64,000 nucleotides of DNA, from assembly GCF_006345805.1 (NCBI RefSeq), contig NC_042997.1, positions 165,354,001 through 165,418,000 on the forward strand, written 5' to 3'. The translations under genes and the position numbers were made by a program. The stretch comes from Octopus sinensis. Taxonomy: Eukaryota. Under the pieces are notes generated by a model. The model did not search any database, was not told the DNA's origin, and saw only the letters and a program-made list of their open reading frames with translations. This document shows positions 5,270-62,985 of this stretch, piece by piece. Every line of letters starts with the position of its first letter. Within the stretch, counting starts at the first letter, position 1.

Positions 5270-5341
5270 TGCCGTGACCAGGATTCGAACCTGGGTTACC
5301 ACGGCCACAACGTGGGGTCCTAACCACTAGACGATCACGGC
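5270..5341 (-). tRNA. tRNA-His-GTG: tRNA-His (GTG)
   Basis: Reverse complement GCCGTGATCGTCTAGTGGTTAGGACCCCACGTTGTGGCCGTGGTAACCCAGGTTCGAATCCTGGTCACGGCA: 72 nt, full cloverleaf, A and B boxes, matches the invertebrate tRNA-His I know. G-1 is not encoded, as expected for Thg1 addition. Confidence 0.97.
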
Positions 5342-7969: not shown

Positions 7970-8031
7970 TATAGTCACCCAAGGTTTCGCATCTACAGGG
8001 CTTTGCTTTGTGGACAGCTCGTCAGACTCTA
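7970..8031 (-). ncRNA. Type I hammerhead ribozyme, probably inactivated copy
   Basis: tagagt CTGACGA [stem II] GAAA ccttggg TG actata. The triplet is GUG and stem I has a mismatch. Confidence 0.7.
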
Positions 8032-9221
8032 TATAAATATAGAGCTTAAAATGCGTCGTAGACGTTAAGAAACGTTCAGACCTCGAGGATTACGTCCTCG
8101 CAAAAAAAAAACCCTTAATGAGGACAGGTTATCTCCCGATCAGAAGAGCAAAAATCCCTTATAGACCCGAAGAGGCCTAAATAGGAAACAGGGAGATCCA
8201 ATTTTCCAGTAAGTAACGCTTGAAGTGAATACATTTAGAAAACACTTCTTTACGGTCGTTTAATGCGCCAGGTTTCTTATAGTCCTTAAGAATTTTGGCT
8301 CTCCCCGCGATGCAGACCTTGCAACGACCACTTCCATTAATATATGGGCCCGGATGATCAATTAGTTTCCACCTGATATCACACGGGGGCCTTTGATCTT
8401 TGAGGTGTCATAGATGGCGGGCCAGGGACGTGTGACAAATCGTCTTTCTGGGACTCTGAAGGATGACTAGCTGTTAAGAAAACGTCGCTTAAACGAAGTA
8501 CTTACAGAACCAATATATTTACACACATGGGATGTGGCCCTATTCGCACCCCTGGTAACATATGGCGCATGGCTGGTCATCCCACGGATGTCGAAGATAA
8601 ATATTGGGTTATCCTCTGAGGCGGCGGAACTGGGAACAGCAAATACTTCCTCCAAGTCGTTGGTCCTGGACAGGTCATTATCTCTAGGTACGGCTTTTTT
8701 TTTATTGGTAGTAACATATATTGCAGGCCTAGCCACTCTATCTATATCTATGGTTTGTTCATTATCCGTGGCGGTGGTACCGGGGTCTTCGGTGATGCTG
8801 GTCCCGGATTGGCTATTATCTCTGGGCGTCGCAGTTGTATTGGTGTGAGAACTTGTTAATCTGCTAATAATATTGCTGTTCGGCGGTACATTACTGTTAT
8901 TGGGGATATCAGGTCCAGGTATCACCATAGCCTTATAGATGATTCGGCCTCCTTCAAGACAGTTACTATATACCCTGCAAGAGCAAACTGCATCCTCCCT
9001 TCTATTGTGGGCACTTGCTAAAATGTACTTACTGGAAAGTTGGATCTCCCCGTTTCCTAGTTAGGCCGCTTGGAGGTCTATGAGGGATATTTCTCCCTCT
9101 GGTCCAGGGGAGATAACCCGTCCTCATTACCTCTTTTTTTTTATTTTGTTAAGACGTAATTCTCAAGTTCTGAGCTTTTCTTCACATCTGCGACGTAGAT
9201 ATTTTAAATTTTGTATTTATA

Positions 9222-9283
9222 TAGAGTCTGATGAGCTGTCCACAAGGCTTTGCTCTGTGGATGCGAAACCTTGGGTAACTCTA
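9222..9283 (+). ncRNA. Type I hammerhead ribozyme with intact core
   Basis: Stem I tagagt/actcta; CTGATGA; stem II gctgtccaca...tgtggatgc; GAAA; stem III ACC-ttg-GGT; GUA cleavage triplet ending at 9277. Confidence 0.85.
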
Positions 9284-9350
9284 AATCCAAAATATAAGAT
9301 TTTGTTGAAGTGATATAAATATATTTAAATATAGGATAAAATCTCTATAA

Positions 9351-9472
9351 GAATTTATCAAGTAGTTAGCGTGAAAAACACCAAAAGAGAAAAATCCACC
9401 AATTTTTCTCTTAAATATATTTATCTATATTATACAGAGGGCATTAATATACATAAATGCCACATGCTAGCT
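9351..9472. other. Structured motif copy A (see findings)
   Basis: Outer stem agttagcgtg/catgctagct; inner hairpin gggcatt...aatgcc. Confidence 0.5.
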
Positions 9473-9924
9473 TCGAGAGTTGCATTCACTCGCTTTCGGT
9501 ACGATGTGTTTTTATTTTTATTTTAGTAGTTTTGACTTTAAGAGTCCCTCCTATAGAGTTTGTGTGTGTGTCTGTGTGAGTGTGTGTGTTGATGAGTTTT
9601 GAAAAGTGAAACAATATATAAGTTAATCGTAAGCTTTCTTTTAACAACTAGGCGAACATAACTCGAAAATAAATTGTCAAAGTTAATAGTTACTCCCCTT
9701 GGAAATGACTGCTTATTTTCCTTGAATCAAATATATGCTTATTAGCAATAAATTATTAATATGAGTTTCTTTGCAGATGTAATTTTTTTTTCTAATGGAA
9801 GAATGAACTCCATAAAGTTTCTCTCCAGTTCCACCACTTTTTTCTTCTAATTTTAGTTTACATGAAGGAAAAATTGAGTCCATAACTTTGGTAAGCGCTC
9901 CCAGATTAGAGAAAGAGCAACATA

Positions 9925-25831: not shown

Positions 25832-26349
25832 ACTTATGTATGTATACAAGCACACAATTATACATACATGTAAACACACATAGGCACATACAAGCACACA
25901 ATTATACATACATGTAAACACACATAGGCACATACAAGCACACACGCACATACAAGCACACACGCGCATATACACAAAGTAAAGCACAGTTATTCCCCAC
26001 ACATACATACATACATACATACATACACACACACACTACATATACATACGCGCGCACACACATACATCAAACTACCAGTATCTTCCACTGACCATTCTCC
26101 TACGCACATGTCTAGGTAGACACACAACAGGAGCCACTCCTACTAAAACGTCTTCCTATGACCTTAAACGATACTAAGCCCAACCACATACATAGATTAA
26201 CAGCCACAACCACACACATACACAGACATATGTGCTATCATTACACACACACACACCTGCGCGCACGCACATACCCACACATACACACACATACCTCCTC
26301 TTGCACTCTCTTGTCTTTGAAAGAATTTTTTCTTCACCCATTCCCTTCG

Positions 26350-26567
26350 GGTCATTCAATATGTGACCGCGTGTGTATCGTTGGCGATTTTTTTCCTCCG
26401 TCTTCTCTCCTTTGGATCTTTCCTTTTTCTATGTTTCTGACGAAGAGCTCCGCTCGAAACTTTAAATCCTCTTTCTTTGTTTCCTTTCCTGAGCGTCCAA
26501 TAACACTATACTTGTTCCACGTCCTCGCGTTGTTGTGCTTTCTCTTTGTGTTTTCATGTTTAGATCA

Positions 26568-26571
<4 letters not shown>
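26350..26571 (+). mobile_element. Solo PLE pseudo-LTR with minimal hammerhead (26434-26466)
   Basis: ttt CTGACGA a gagc-tcc-gctc GAAA c ttt aaa; pyrimidine-rich tail ending at (TA)n. Confidence 0.65.
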
Positions 26572-26635
<64 letters not shown>

Positions 26636-26670
26636 CAACAATTGAGGGCAAAATTAATTAATTATTAATC

Positions 26671-26777
26671 AATTTCACCAAGTGTTCAGTATGCAAAGGG
26701 ACCATTCAAGGCGAATTCAAATTATTACATTATATAAAAGGGCTTAGTAAAATAAATTACTTTGCCGCATACTGAAC
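26671..26777. other. Structured motif copy B (see findings)
   Basis: Perfect 11-bp stem gttcagtatgc/gcatactgaac; inner hairpin gggc-ttagtaa...ttactt-tgcc. Confidence 0.55.
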
Positions 26778-26880
26778 TCATTAGAAATAGCAGCTAAAAA
26801 ACTTTTTTAAAGCTATTTCTAATACTTAAAGAAAATCTCTCTCATATATAGTGTTTGCTTAATTCATATATATATATATA

Positions 26881-28535: not shown

Positions 28536-29893
28536 ATATAACAAATTATTTCGTTAAATATTTTCGAGATTGAAAAATAGATTTTGAAATGTCAAGAAAG
28601 TCGATTTCGAGAAATAATAATTCATCTTCAACTGTAAGTACCAAACAGTTTAATATAAGTGAAACAACTAATAGTACAGTTAAGAAAAGCGAAGAAAATT
28701 TAGAGTCAGCACAATTGCTGAATCTTCGATAATTTTAAACGAACACCATACCAAATTATTAACATCATGGAAACAACGGAAAGCTTTATTTTGGATTGAA
28801 AATAAAAACCCAATATTACGACAGTAACACTATGTATGTATGTATGTATGTGTGAAGGCACGAGCTTACGATCGTGAGGTTGTGAGTTCGCCTCTCGGAC
28901 CGGGCTGCGTAATTTTAGTCCTTGAGGACAGTTTTCGTTTTTCTTTCGTGTTACCCAATTTTGCCTTGTCTTGTCTTGCAGCCCCAAAGCTTTTTTTTTT
29001 CTTCTGTATATGTATTATTTTCATTTTAATTGTTGTTTCCGTGTGGCTCTAAGTCTTTATTCTATCTATTGTTTTGTCCTTCATCCGTTTACTAACGGTC
29101 TCGTCTCGAGTCCGCCTCGAACCCATCTCGTCTTGTTATTCATAATTTGGTGCACTTGGTTTTGTGAGTGAATGCCTAAGCGACAATTTGTAAAAAGTCG
29201 GATTTTCAAAAGATATCAACCAGCCAGCTAAGACTCACATTACAAATAAAATCAAAAAACGGAACAGAAAAATATGCACAACTTCCTTAAGTCCAAAATG
29301 TGACATTGTTTCTGTTACCTACATCCAAACAATGGAGCTTTGTATCTTTGACAGAAACCATCTCCTTCCTTGCGGGAAGACTTCAGATAATTAAAAGCAG
29401 AAGAGAACTCATATATACATACGTATACACACACACACTCACTTGCATACATATTCAAAATGTTCTGTAGTGTGTAGGCAGCTTGCTCTTATCATTTAGT
29501 TACTGCGCCGCTTTGGTTCTCTTTTTCCTTCAACCCACTTGCAAAGACCATATTAAGGGGGTTGTAACAAAGGCAAGAAAAAGAAAAGAAAGAAAGGAAC
29601 CCCTAGAAAGAGAGGGGGCGGACATAGTAACTTTGTACATTCAGTGTATGGCAATATTAGGGTGATCGCTCAAGTATTTCTCGGGGATGACGCCATATTT
29701 TTCTGCTAAAATTATGGCTTTCAACGGATACATAGATATCCAAAAATACAAAAAAAAAAAGCTATCAAGAGCAAGCTCACTCGTAACCCACCCATTTCTG
29801 TCCTTTTCTTTCAGTTAGTATATCTCTCTCTCTCTCTCTCTTATATATATATATATATATAAGGATAAGATCGTTAATTTGAATTAAATAACG

Positions 29894-29990
29894 ATGTTAT
29901 CAAGTGGCCAGCATGGGAATAAAAACCTTCAAAGGTAATGATTATTATTCAAATTCTAACTTAGGGTATCTACAAGATACCGCCATGCTG
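29894..29990. other. Structured motif copy C (see findings)
   Basis: Outer stem cagcatgg/ccatgctg; inner hairpin ggtatc-tacaa-gatacc. Confidence 0.55.
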
Positions 29991-30202
29991 AAAATAGCAG
30001 CCAGGATCTGACTCTAAAACCACATTAAGTGTTCATATAGCACAAGGAGAGAAGACAAAAAGACAAAATAAAACTAGTAAAAAATTACTGGATAATTCCA
30101 GATCCCGGATTTCTGACTTTGCATTTAGAAATGCTTTGCCTCATCAGTGGAATATACGCTCTGGTCGACGCTATGGCGACCAGAGCTGGCTTGGCTTGGC
30201 TT

Positions 30203-32804: not shown

Positions 32805-35480
32805 TTTGGTATTGGCAACATGAATGACAATGGCCAGAGACTACTTGAATTTTGCACATGACATAACCTGTGCATCACTAACACATTCTTTACCAACAAG
32901 ACATCCCACAAGGCATCTTGGAGACATCCAAGATCTCAGCACTGGCATCAGCTTGATCTCATCATTACACGAAAATCCTTTCTGAATTCTGTTCAACTGA
33001 CCCGTACTTATCACAGCGCGGATTGTGACACAGATCATTCACTAATAAAAAGCAGGGTGGGATTCTGCCTAAAAAAAGTCCATTACTTTAAGAAAATGGG
33101 CCGACCACGCATTAACACTGCCAGAACCTCGGACGCTACACTGCGACAATGTTTTGCTGTTTCTATCAAGGTTGCCCTCAGTAGCTGCCCAACCTCCTCT
33201 GCTGAAAGTAGGTGGAATTATATCAGGGAAGCTTTGTATACCACATCAATATATACTTCCGGCATGAGAGAAAGGTAAAACCCAGATTTTGTTCAGTGCT
33301 GGGCTCTCAGAGCTGGAAGCAGTTATCGAAGCAAAGCGTGCAGCTCTGATGCAATACAAGAGTGATTCTTCTACAAAGACACTCGAAGAACTTAGAAAGG
33401 CAAGAAATAAAACCCAACTGACTGCCAGATGCTGTGCAAATGGGTATTGGCAGGAAAAATCTGTCAGAGTATCCAGTCATCTGCTGACAGTGGCGACTCC
33501 CGTGGGATGTATGCCGGTTTGACGAAGGCCCTAGGGCCATCTGCAACCAAGTCAGCCCCTCTGAAATCAACTACTGGGGATCTCATCAAGGACCAAAGCA
33601 AGCAAATGGATACATGGATGAAGTACTATCAGGATCTCTACTCACGAGAAACCACGGTAGCTGAGGCTGCGATCAAGGGTATCAAGATCTTGCCAGTCAT
33701 GTGTGAACTTGACAGTCTGCCATCTATAGCAGAGCTCACCAAATCTATTGACTCCCTTGCAAGTAACAAGGCTCCGGGAAAAGACGGCATCCCCGTAGAG
33801 ATCATCAAAACCGGCAAAAACACCATCCTGCTTCGGCACATTCATGAGCTTCTGTGTCAGTGCTGGGAAGAGGGTACAGTCCCCCAGAACATGCGGGATG
33901 CTAACATCATTACGCTTTACAAAAATAAAGGTGACCGTGATGATTGTAACAATTACCGTGGAATATCTCTTCTAAGCACTGTTGGAAAGGCCTCTGCTCG
34001 CATTATCCTGTCCAGGCTGCAACTAATTGCTTCTCGAATTTATCCAGAATCGCAGTGTGGCTTTAGAAGAAGCAGATCAACTATTGACATGATATTCTCC
34101 ATACGCCAACTTCAGAAGTCCAGAGAGCAGAAAATGCCATTATATATGGCCTTCATTGATCTGACAAAGGCCTTTGACTTGGTAAGTAAAAAAGGCCTCT
34201 TCATCCTGCTACAAAAAATCGGATGTCCACCAAAGCTGCTGAGGATCATCAAATCTTTCCATGCTGATATGCAAGGCACCATACATCACAATAGTTCAGA
34301 ATCAGGTTGTGTCCTTGCTCCTACATTATTTGGCATCTTCTTCTTGCTGCTGCTGTCACATGCCTTTCAGACATCAGATGATGGAGTGTTTCTGCACAGT
34401 AGAAGTGATGGGAAACTGTTCAATCTCTCGCGTCTGCGTGTCATGACCAAAATCAGAAGCGTCCTGATCAAGGAGATGCTATTTGCTGATGATGCCGCTC
34501 TGGTATCACATACAGAAGAAGCCCTACAAAGGCTAATCAACTGTTTTGAGCAAGCATTTGGCGACTTTGGCTTAGTTATCAGCCTCAAGAAGACCAACAT
34601 CATGGGTCAGGCTACATCGGACATCCCAAACATACATATTGGAGACAGAGTACATGAGGTGGAGAAGTTTACCTATCTTGGCTCTACCGTCACCTACAAC
34701 CTATCCCTTGATGCTGAGCTCAATATACGCATTGGCAAGGCAGCTGCTGTGATGGCCCAACTCACCAAACGGGCATGGGACAACAATAAGCTGACCAAGA
34801 TCACAAAAATCAAGATTTACCAGGTATGTGTACTTAGCACGCTACTGTATGGAAGTGAGACTTGGACGCCATACACACGCCAAGAGCGTCGCCTAAATAT
34901 CTTTCACCTGCGCTGCCTCTAGAAAATCCTTCGCATCAAATGGAAGAATCATGTCCTCAACAAAGATGTCTTCAAGCAAGCAGGAATACCAAGCATGTTT
35001 GCACTCCTCACACAAAGACGTATGAGATGGCTTGGACATGTTAGCCGTATGGAAGATGGCAGAATCCCCAAGGACATACTGTTCAGAGAGCTTGCTAGGG
35101 GCACTAGGTCTGTGGGAAGACCGTTCTTACGATACAAGGATGTTTGCAAAAGGGACATGAATGCCTGCAACATCAATATTACCAACTGTGAAGCAGTTGC
35201 CAGTAACCGTAGAGATTTGCGACGTACCTTAAAAGGAGTGACATAGAGAGAGAGGAGAAATGGAAAGACAAGAAAATACGTCAACAAGAAACTATGACAT
35301 TACAACCAGCCAGGCAAAGTCTTCGCTACATTTGCGACACCTGCTAGAGGGAGTATTTGTTCAGGATAGGACTACACAGCCACAGCAGGAGATGTATTAG
35401 GATATGAAATGTAAAAGCCGGACTAGATTATTTTATGCGCAACTCCATTGTCTCCCGAGACAAAAAGGATGCCAACAACA
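32805..35480 (+). mobile_element. RTE LINE, 5'-truncated (APE C-terminus + RT), with stops, frameshifts and an internal deletion
   Basis: FGIGNMNDNGQRLLEFC; ORF 33429..34922 with NYRGISLLS, AFIDLTKAFD, LFADDAAL and FTYLGS; 3' UTR ending ggatgccaacaaca. Long flanking duplication. Confidence 0.95.
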
Positions 35481-59879: not shown

Positions 59880-61460
59880 TTTAATATTGACTGGTGAGAA
59901 GCTGCCGTTCTTTAATATGTTGGCCTGGTAGTTCCTTGTAAGTAGGCATTGGTCTTGGGTTGCTGTGATAAACCCTTCTATTTTAGATTTTATGTCTTCT
60001 ATTTCAGATTTTAAGCCAGAAGCCAGAAGCCATTAGCCATTGATGGGTTAGGGCTTTGTCAACAGCAACATAATTCGCTCTCTTTAGGTATTAACCAGTG
60101 AGAGATTTTTCTTGCCATTTATCAGTCAGAATATCTAAGGCAGCAGTTTTAGCACGGGTTTTCATGCGCTTAGCTTTTTCTGCACTTGTTTCTAGTATGA
60201 CTAATTCCGGAATTTATTGTATTTGGAATTCACTTCAATATTCCCATGCCTGATTTGTTATTGAGTATGATGCTTTCTTGTTTTCATGTTTTGAGTCAAG
60301 TTTTAACATCCAGTCCTCAGAGTTTTTCAGGTAGGTGTCTAGGCCGATTGTGGCAATCTTCGTTGTTAATGCCAGTTGTAAAAATCCACGGCCTCCGTCT
60401 TTTCTTGGCAGATAAAGTCGATCTATATCTGCCTTAGGGTGGTGCATTCTATGCATTTTCAACAGTTTTCTTATTTTTTTGTCAAGATTACACATTTCAG
60501 TAATTGATCAGTTAATGATATTGAAACTGTAAGTCACGACTGGTATGGCTAAAGCATTGATAGCTTCGATCCTGTTTCTTGCATTCAGCTCTGTCTTAAG
60601 TATTGCTCTCACTCTGCGATAACATTCTCTTCTGATCTTTTCCCTCATCACTGAATGCCTGATTCCGTCCCCTTCAAGTACCCCTAGGTATTTGTAGCTC
60701 TCCGCTGGTTCCAACTCTTTTATGACATTCAACTGGTCAAGGTTAACGTTAAATGTTTCTGTAATTTTTCCTTTGATAAAGGTAGCTTTTGCACATTTAT
60801 CGAGGCCAAATTGCATCCTGGTGTCATCACTGAATTGTTTAACAATCGTTAGTAAGCCCTTGAATTGTTGCTCATTTTTTGCAAAGAGCTTTAAATCATC
60901 CATATATATGAGATGATATAGATTTTTATCTAACATTTTATAACCGTACTGTTACCATTGAGCAATTTTGAGAGAGGTATTAAGGCTAGACAAAAGAGGA
61001 GTGGTGATAGTGAGTCACCCTGGAAAAATGCCACATGAAATTCTTACATCACCAGCATTTAGAGATTCATTGTCACTGTTCAAAGTCAGTGTGGTTCTCC
61101 ATGATCTCATCTTACAGACAAAAAGTTTCGCTGAGTAGGAGCTATTTTATACATTTCCAGACATTTCTTAATCTAGCTATGTGGTAGGCAGTCAAATGCT
61201 TTTTTATAATCTATCCAGGCTATTAATAAGTTTTTGTGTCGTTTGTGACAATCTTCTAATATCATCTTATTGATGAGTAGCTGATCTTTACAACCATAAG
61301 ATCCATGTTTACATCCTTTTGCTCATTAAGGAATATGTTACTTTCTATTAAGAAACTATAGGTAAATTTAGTCAGGACAGATGTTAGCGTTTTATACATT
61401 GTTGTTAAGCAGGTTATGGGTCGATTTTTTTTGGTTTATTTGTTTCATCACTTTTGGAAT
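59880..61460 (-). mobile_element. R4/Dong-type LINE RT fragment
   Basis: HLIYMDDLKLFAK, SYKYLGV and MHRMHHPKADIDRLY. Confidence 0.9.
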
Positions 61461-62985
61461 TAGGAATGTTAAACCATTAACTAGCCAAGAGGGCATCATA
61501 CTAAGATGTTGCAAAATACACAACAGATTAGACTGTTGGAACAGAAAAATTCCTAACATCGGGCTACTAGTAACCCTAGATGCCAAGAGCCACCCTAAGT
61601 ATCCTAGCTGTCCTTAATAACACTGTTTTCTGGAGCTGTACTAAACTAGGCTTTATGCCTATTTCCGCTATTCATCTGTCCCAATTTAATATACCTATAA
61701 CTACTGGAATACATTTTATCTGCACTTTTCATAGTCTCTATAATTCAATGACTAGGTCCTGGTACTTTGCTATTTTTTCTGTGCTTCTCATATTGATTTT
61801 TTCATTATTTGGAACTGTAAAGGCAATTATCTGATACTTTCTATTCTCTTTGTCTACTACTACTAAATCAGGCCTTCTAGCTTCTAGTTTGAATGTTAAA
61901 GTTCCACAACAGCTTCTATTTCTTACTTTCTAGTACTTTTCTAGGTTCATGTTCATATCATTTATCAGTATGATCAAACCCTAGCATAACTCCCATAACT
62001 CCCATAACCATGTCTCACTACTACTATTTGCAACCATAACCATGTCTCACTACTACTGTTTGCAGCAACTATCCAACTATCTCTGGGAATCTACCATGCA
62101 AAGCCTTCTCCTGCCAGTCAGATAGCTATTTTTTCTGGTTTTAACTTCGTTTCTTTTTTCTCCCGTGTCTTGCTGTGACTCTGGCAGCTCTTAATAAACT
62201 TTCTTCACTATTACTTACATAGGAGTCTATATCTACTCTAGCTATCTACTCTAGCTAAATATACGCAGTCTTCTACTGATATTAACCCTCTTCCACCTTT
62301 CTTTCTAGGTAAGTATAATCTCGCCACTCCTGCTCTCAGTTGGAGACCTCCGTTCATATTGAATTACCTCCTGGGTTTTCTATCTAGCTTTGCTAATTCA
62401 GCTTTTGTCCAATCTACAAAAGCTGCAGAGCATCTAAGTAATGATACTGCCCAAGCATTTACAGCCTTCACTAGATTCGAACCATCTAGCTTTGGCCTCA
62501 TTAGTTTCCTTACCCTCATGATGTACTCCTTCTCAATTTTCGTTTTCATTTCTATAGTTAGTATTCTGTCAAATTCTAATACTCCTAGATACTTATAACT
62601 CTCTGCTTCTTTTAATGATTTCAGTGTTTGACCAGCTGGTAATTGGATGCCTTCACTGTTGATTACCTGTCCCCTTTCCATGACTAATATTGCACACTTA
62701 TCTATGCCAAACTCCATACCTATATCTTTGATGAAGAATCTTACAGTCTGTATTAAGGAATCCATCTCTTTTTTATTCCTACTAAAAAGCTTCGGATCAT
62801 CCATATAGAGAAAATGATTAATTTTTCCCTTACTATTTCCTTAATACTAAACTGAGGGGGATCAAACATAAGACAAATATTAAAGGGGATAACCAATCTC
62901 CTTCGAAAATTCCTCTCTTGATACTAACCTTCCCTAAGACTGTGTCACCTGAGTAGAGTTCTACTTTCCATTTCTTCATGCTGAA
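61460..62985 (-). mobile_element. Second R4/Dong-type LINE fragment (RT + RLE)
   Basis: YMDDPKLF, SYKYLGVLE and RLE-like RRPDLVVVDK...EKIAKYQDL. Confidence 0.85.

Follow-up and report, generated by a model that had tools for sequence, protein, structure and literature searches.

A motif present in three diverged copies in the 64,000-nucleotide stretch of the Octopus sinensis genome analysed here (hereafter the window) has a four-helix RNA fold, which reads on the minus strand. In our main reading, to which we give a probability of about 0.7, this motif is the conserved 3'-terminal structure of many families of non-LTR retrozymes and is probably where a borrowed Penelope-like (PLE) reverse transcriptase (RT)/GIY-YIG endonuclease binds the RNA and starts. 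A first-pass annotation of the same DNA had proposed a conserved covarying fold at a Penelope-type terminus, and this proposal is borne out by covariation across ten families and by PLE-like ends; the fold has no match in Rfam.

Three copies of the motif in the window

The three diverged copies (A, B and C, Table 1) lie where the first-pass annotation had placed them. A descriptor of their shared layout matched exactly these three places in the window and 0-1 place in each of 30 shuffled windows (one match in 6 of the 30), a test that is partly circular because the descriptor was derived from the copies themselves. The AT-rich setting reported earlier was likewise confirmed, all three copies adjoining (TA)n or AT-rich DNA. 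Copy B is 5'-truncated near 26866, ahead of its own hammerhead, and the short end used by other family B copies (6 of 17 terminal copies) falls about 10 nt beyond the CU, near 26728. Copy C was recovered by a model from whose training set family C had been left out (E 1.4e-5). The predicted cut of its hammerhead lies between 30101 and 30100, and this hammerhead is undetected by Rfam.

Regarding the surroundings, copy A sits inside the AT-rich end of another Penelope-type element, an insertion with inverted arms (7985-9310), each arm of which has a canonical type I hammerhead core with a long stem II (7985-8025, minus; 9228-9268, plus). Positions 26333-26571 are what is left of a Penelope pLTR. 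This remnant has a minimal hammerhead core (26437-26459, plus) and stands tail to tail with copy B, a single (TA)30 tract lying between the two. Three hammerheads, at 7985-8025, 9228-9268 and 26437-26459, were considered as parts of motif copies and rejected, as they belong to other elements.

Table 1. Features of the motif copies and further features of the window (window coordinates; WC, Watson-Crick)
Feature	Position	Strand	Remarks
Copy A, whole motif	9333-9471	-	family A; 31.4 bits, E 0.036
Copy A, P1	9462-9471 with 9365-9374	-	
Copy A, P2 and CU	9438-9461	-	
Copy A, linker	9360-9364	-	
Copy A, P4 and CU	9333-9359	-	
Copy A, inverted second arm	9477-9555	+	family A sequence from between hammerhead and P1; by-eye comparison with loci L109 and L052
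Copy B, insertion	26632-26866	-	long 3' end at (TA)n tract 26572-26631
Copy B, whole four-helix motif	26645-26776	-	family B; 105.8 bits, training copy of the model
Copy B, P1 5' strand	26767-26776	-	10/10 WC pairs
Copy B, hairpin P2, then CU	26739-26766	-	fold and family comparison
Copy B, AU-rich single-stranded loop	26713-26738	-	short-end site of other family B copies
Copy B, small hairpin P3	26701-26712	-	fold and family comparison
Copy B, P1 3' strand	26685-26694	-	Pa of the first-pass annotation; fold and family comparison
Copy B, conserved pyrimidine-rich linker	26680-26684	-	AAGT of the first-pass annotation on the plus strand; family comparison
Copy B, terminal hairpin P4, then CU	26645-26679	-	fold and family comparison
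Copy C, whole motif	29862-29992	-	family C; long end at (TA)n
Copy C, P1	29983-29992 with 29907-29916	-	
Copy C, P2 and CU	29963-29981	-	
Copy C, loop	29937-29962	-	
Copy C, P3	29925-29936	-	
Copy C, linker	29902-29906	-	
Copy C, P4 and CU	29862-29901	-	
Copy C, type I hammerhead motif	30095-30153	-	core intact; 6-bp stem I; stem III short and palindromic
tRNA gene	5270-5341	-	Rfam, 62 bits
LINE-type reverse transcriptase frame	33411-34922	+	Pfam RVT_1
LINE-type reverse transcriptase frame	60508-60951	-	Pfam RVT_1
LINE-type reverse transcriptase frame	62364-62840	-	Pfam RVT_1

The fold and its covariation

For most single copies RNAfold returns a nested minus-strand fold of four helices. P1 (8-10 bp) encloses the hairpin P2, a CU, an AU-rich strand of 27-64 nt, the small hairpin P3 and a U-tract; 3' of P1, a short pyrimidine-rich linker precedes the terminal hairpin P4 and a second CU. 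This fold is kept in at least 13 families of the Octopus sinensis genome, together with conserved unpaired bases in the linker and CU and one invariant G-C pair in P1.

Covariation was scored by family majority in ten families with 0-83 extra copies each, with 5000 strand swaps as control, and was also examined in 13 single copies. The pair counts that follow are not independent events because families B and D-H are related; moreover, the family G majority is distorted in P1 columns 3-4 by a decayed reference, and A2 is represented by one copy. Both helices proposed earlier covary. P1, previously called Pa, forms 80 WC and 13 G-U pairs in 100 cells, with two-sided change in 7 of 10 columns and all four WC pairs in one column, a result reached by none of the 5000 strand swaps. 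P2, previously described as a GGG-hairpin-CC, is paired in 29 of 30 cells (21/5000 swaps). P4 forms 49 WC pairs and one G-U in 50 cells (6/5000 swaps), its second pair alternating between G-C and A-U. No two-sided change was seen for P3 across the ten families (1968/5000 swaps reach its score); the hairpin is retained with other sequences in the diverged families L and M and in further diverged families. Pairing of the GG of P3 with the linker, as a second small pseudoknot, showed no two-sided change either and is absent where the P3 sequence differs.

Model R1, built from four related families (B, D, E and G), recovered five families that had played no part in its training (A, C, K, L and M). 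Its successor R2 places all three window copies on the minus strand and brings in further families. In the families thus found, complete copies show P1, P4 and CU. In alignment A7, which leans toward the model to which it was fitted, includes related families and has some misregistered rows, pairing holds in 90.7% of the 497 cells, and two-sided change is seen at 26 of the 29 pairs (0/500 shuffles). It should be noted that MAFFT and RNAalifold misregistered P1 across families. A comparison with Rfam yielded no match at the three copies (E≤5), and only weak unrelated families at motif copies in five loci (E≤10).

Most families conserve a pyrimidine-rich stretch just 5' of P1 (aaatagcagc in the first-pass annotation; 26777-26800 and 29993-30003, minus; loci L069 and L067). 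In B-type families this stretch forms part of a long hairpin upstream, which is not the case in C; in A, C, L and M, P1 may continue into it beyond a bulge.

The motif reads on the minus strand

The strand, left open by the first-pass annotation on account of mixed G-U evidence, can be assigned. Three independent lines place the motif on the minus strand: the orientation of the hammerhead, the G-U counts, and the fixed 3' ends as opposed to scattered 5' ends. G-U cells outnumber A-C cells by 14 to 1 for the minus strand in P1, P2 and P4 of the ten families. Whole-motif folding z-scores did not separate the strands.

The host elements are retrozymes with a hammerhead upstream of the motif

Judged by their sequence features, the host elements of the motif are non-coding, (TA)n-targeting, tandem or inverted non-LTR retrozymes that carry the motif at their 3' end. 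The families themselves are new and the element type is already known. In family B, units of 545-560 bp follow one another in tandem arrays, often as a pair of arms set back to back; one end is fixed against (TA)n, and the longest stop-free frames seen in these arrays span 76-124 codons. The unit measures 494 bp in family C and about 480-540 bp in families A, K, L and M. Exact searches of the Octopus sinensis genome gave 4084 and 4233 matches for two family B patterns, 129 for a family C pattern and 2 for a tight family A pattern; a looser pattern for A and its relatives gave 1720 (control, 7). Family B words also occur in at least 23 sequencing runs of three organisms, among the matches listed. 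When model R2 was applied to 60 stretches of 10 kb at round coordinates, four of them beside the window, 14 matches were obtained at E≤1, of which nine were below 1e-4 and five of these nine in training loci. A rough extrapolation from 9-14 matches per 600 kb puts the genome-wide copy number at some tens of thousands.

In 7 of 8 families examined, the motif strand carries a type I hammerhead core together with its stems I and III, about 95-155 nt upstream (5') of the motif; family D was missed in the range scanned, but one D-type copy shows the core. Stem I comprises 4-7 bp and the palindromic stem III 3-5 bp, and stem II closes with a mismatch or an extra base in 5 of 7 families. The call rests on a custom pattern and a pairing check because Rfam detects none of these hammerheads. 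Among 135 motif copies with 300 nt of upstream sequence, the core stands on the motif strand in 38 and on the opposite strand in 9, most of the 135 being 5'-truncated ahead of it.

At one locus (L106, 1936-3020), a motif copy has as its neighbour an open frame of 361 aa that contains a zinc knuckle and is LINE ORF1-like.

Genomic copies end at two fixed sites

Genomic copies have two fixed 3' ends, one in the loop at about 10 nt from P2 and the other 10-20 nt beyond P4. Each fixed end is separated by a short AU-rich stretch from a G:C-closed hairpin and CU. Ends were mapped with the motif 5' half as anchor. In family C (70 copies, 6 of 76 having been dropped as short downstream or duplicated), 34 ends were short, 28 long, 5 copies ran on and 3 ended elsewhere; the short ends lie mostly 8-17 nt past the CU that follows P2 and the long ones about 10 nt past P4, or 23 nt where the TA flank keeps matching. 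Family B (n = 40) gave 6 short ends (five at +10), 11 long ends (ten at +17) and 23 copies running into the next unit. Short ends were seen by eye in families A, D, F, G, H and M too. In family C, 30 of the 34 short ends and 23 of the 28 long ones (53/62) adjoin a TA-type flank, as do 17 of 17 ends in family B, and 13 of 16 two-armed loci pair one short with one long end (8/10 in C, 5/6 in B). By contrast, 5' ends scatter from -400 to +8 in family C (n = 64) and from -422 to +3 in family B (n = 19), with no pile-up at the motif.

The available text of PMC8557442 describes PLE insertions as partial tandems with an inverted 5'-truncated arm, a tail at one end and a microsatellite target. The end pattern reported here is that of a PLE-type insertion and carries the Penelope 'tail' signature.

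Search for an autonomous partner

No autonomous element with the fold was found, there being no sense match at the 3' ends of 28 GIY-YIG loci and 20 Neptune-type loci; the GIY-YIG search scored 150 of 5029 candidates, retrieved 30 and covered elements other than the Naiads of the Octopus sinensis genome. The Neptune ORFs examined end in other sequences than the motif. At L103 a fragment of a Neptune ORF adjoins a family A motif; it was considered as a partner and set aside as a nested insertion, its relatives ending in another sequence, and two weak model matches downstream of GIY-YIG domains proved to be noise on inspection. A search for a solved structure related to the Neptune ORF found none. 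In the available part of the PMC8557442 supplement, the motif was absent by eye from the ends of those Naiad consensuses that bear octopus species names, and short words gave no convincing match. A metagenome pattern scan returned 31 loci with no model match, a result uninformative about other animals.

Neptune-type PLEs are abundant (L073-L102, L153-L172), with a CxxC linker and open frames of up to 883 aa; unlike the motif, they have their own fixed 3' ends and optional tails of 40-60 nt. The Naiad consensus printed before Naiad_Mphi in the same part of that supplement ends in a G:C-closed hairpin and CU, and shares a short word found 5' of P1, possibly hinting at a Naiad-type helper.

Alternative readings of the motif

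The two end sites could be set by sequence alone, through AU-rich strands annealing to nicked (TA)n, in which case the fold would stabilise the RNA or its circle, or control the hammerhead. Both sites are indeed AU-rich and merge into the (TA)n flank, and retrozyme RNAs are described as highly self-paired in the accessible portion of PMC7229834. In family B the unit's two strongest TA matches coincide with the end sites (7/8, in a run that missed 11 anchors, mostly long ends, through an alignment artefact), so that simple annealing could explain them and this family does not discriminate. Family C does: none of 67 ends falls in the spacer, where TA matches reach 8/8, whereas the two used sites match 6/8. 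Moreover, the ends keep a similar distance past the hairpin and CU across families whose hairpin sequences are unrelated. We therefore regard this explanation as unlikely.

The first-pass annotation had proposed a pseudoknot in copies B and C and a loosely HDV-like topology. The strand ahead of AAGT is in fact the 5' arm of P4, a hairpin missed at that stage. The pseudoknot pairing does exceed the strand-swap controls, with 43-48 WC pairs in 60 cells (36 and 5 of 5000 swaps), and reaches 5-6 of 6 in families B, E, F, G and H, as would be expected if the 5' arm of P4 alternated between terminal hairpin and pseudoknot and so chose between the two start sites. Yet in fixed register it is broken in families A, A2, C, D and K and absent in M, its best run beats shuffled upstream sequence in just 1 of 13 copies, and the layout is common to all these families, pseudoknot-keeping or not. 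A general switch of this kind thus appears highly improbable; the pairing may possibly act as a switch in one lineage and is not a defining feature. HDV-like ribozymes have a long-range P1 with an internal insertion, a small P3, a P1.1 and a conserved J4/2 core. The motif shares with them the long-range P1 with its insertion and the small P3 hairpin, and differs by having no supported pseudoknot, no P1.1, no conserved J4/2 core and a U-tract between P3 and P1; neither a nested double pseudoknot nor a catalytic C in J4/2 was found, and the HDV-like topology is not supported by the most diverged families. Comparison with the covariance models and cores of the twister, twister-sister, pistol, hatchet, hairpin and hammerhead families was negative as well. 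A new self-cleaving ribozyme or ligase would accord with the deep covariation, the conserved unpaired bases, the invariant G-C pair in P1 and the lack of an Rfam match. However, the invariant unpaired bases are few, the pseudoknot is at chance level in 12 of 13 copies, and 5' ends show no accumulation at the motif or immediately ahead of it (of 64, 3 lie within 10 nt of P1; the test is blind 3' of P2). Furthermore, the motif-bearing RNA already has an ordinary type I hammerhead core upstream on the minus strand, so that the fold does not replace the usual PLE ribozyme. Self-cleavage by the motif is accordingly hard to credit, since nothing indicates it; of the earlier proposal, a new ribozyme or an RT-recognition element, it is the second half that we retain as the best reading.

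Proposed role in retrozyme insertion

From the fold, its strand, its position and the end pattern, we infer how a start signal read by a borrowed PLE protein could operate. The protein would bind the fold via P1, the linker and the hairpin bases, and would nick (TA)n DNA on both strands. Each DNA 3' end might then base-pair with the AU-rich strand that directly follows P2 or P4 and serve as the primer for cDNA, both start sites obeying one signal, namely a G:C-closed hairpin, CU and an AU-rich strand able to anneal to nicked (TA)n. If a single RNA, which may be circular, were primed twice in this way, the two arms would stand back to back and differ in length by a tail of about 100 nt.

The motif bears on how animal retrozymes return to DNA. 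PLE machinery has been proposed as the mover of animal non-LTR retrozymes in the available text of PMC7229834, and the available part of a 2026 preprint by Li, Clavereau and Pollet (bioRxiv 10.64898/2026.07.22.740005) calls the mobilisation mechanism open. For PLE RTs, the choice of RNA and the internal start have been described in a single in vitro study that gives no structure model. The fold offers a covariation-supported structure with two mapped, putative start sites, testable with short RNAs.

Comparison with known systems

The elements resemble the metazoan non-LTR retrozymes described in the available portions of PMC7229834 (Cervera and de la Pena 2020) and bioRxiv 10.64898/2026.07.22.740005 in their non-coding tandem units of 480-560 bp, their thousands of copies, and their single type I hammerhead core per unit with a short palindromic stem III. 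They differ in that the same portions of these sources describe no second conserved RNA structure, no fixed start sites and no cephalopod family.

A precedent comes from the Poseidon PLE of anole (PAc; Frangieh et al. 2024, PMC11167929), whose protein, according to the available text, needs an RNA segment 3' of the hammerhead, cuts AT-rich DNA on both strands and has two internal RT start sites, the spacing of which equals the genomic tail. The retrozyme motif likewise lies 3' of the hammerhead, with two putative internal starts, a tail between them and AT-rich targets for which cutting of both strands is proposed. By contrast, PAc starts in an AC-rich stem-loop inside an ORF, with a tail of 30-40 nt and, in the text available, no covariation model, whereas the motif is non-coding and AU-rich, with four helices, a tail of about 100 nt and 13 or more families; the two are compared by description only. 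By this analogy, we regard the cis-element as an undescribed variant of a PAc-type initiation region. The open literature, taken outside Repbase, Dfam and preprint supplements, yielded no description of the fold or of a second conserved retrozyme structure.

PLE RTs are the closest relatives (sister group) of TERT. Ciliate telomerase RNA consists, in order, of a closing helix, a hairpin, the template strand, a small stem, a return strand, a linker and a terminal hairpin. The motif resembles this core in size and in the succession of closing helix, hairpin, priming strand, small stem, return strand, linker and terminal hairpin; it differs in having no reiterated template and no supported pseudoknot, the resemblance being one of topology alone, and the telomerase RNA models in Rfam gave no match to it. 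In the ciliate RNA, as described in the accessible text of PMC4993307, TERT is bound by a hairpin whose base is conserved and which lies immediately 5' of the template, and helix IV is regarded as possibly convergent. The position of the copy ends, about 10 nt past P2 and CU, would fit the geometry of such hairpin-base docking by the RNA-binding domain of an RT; P2 does not act as a template boundary or stop, as cDNA continues through P2 and P1 to the remainder of the unit. The fold could thus be imagined as a telomerase-RNA-like core for a Penelope RT, in which the closing helix would present the AU-rich priming strand beside a hairpin base docked on a TRBD-like domain, the terminal hairpin would provide a second dock, and one RNP would prime both nicked (TA)n strands. 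This analogy, the boldest of our readings in that PLE RTs are the enzymes nearest to TERT, is in our view unlikely. If true, the fold would be a living model of the RNA recognised by the ancestral PLE/TERT enzyme.
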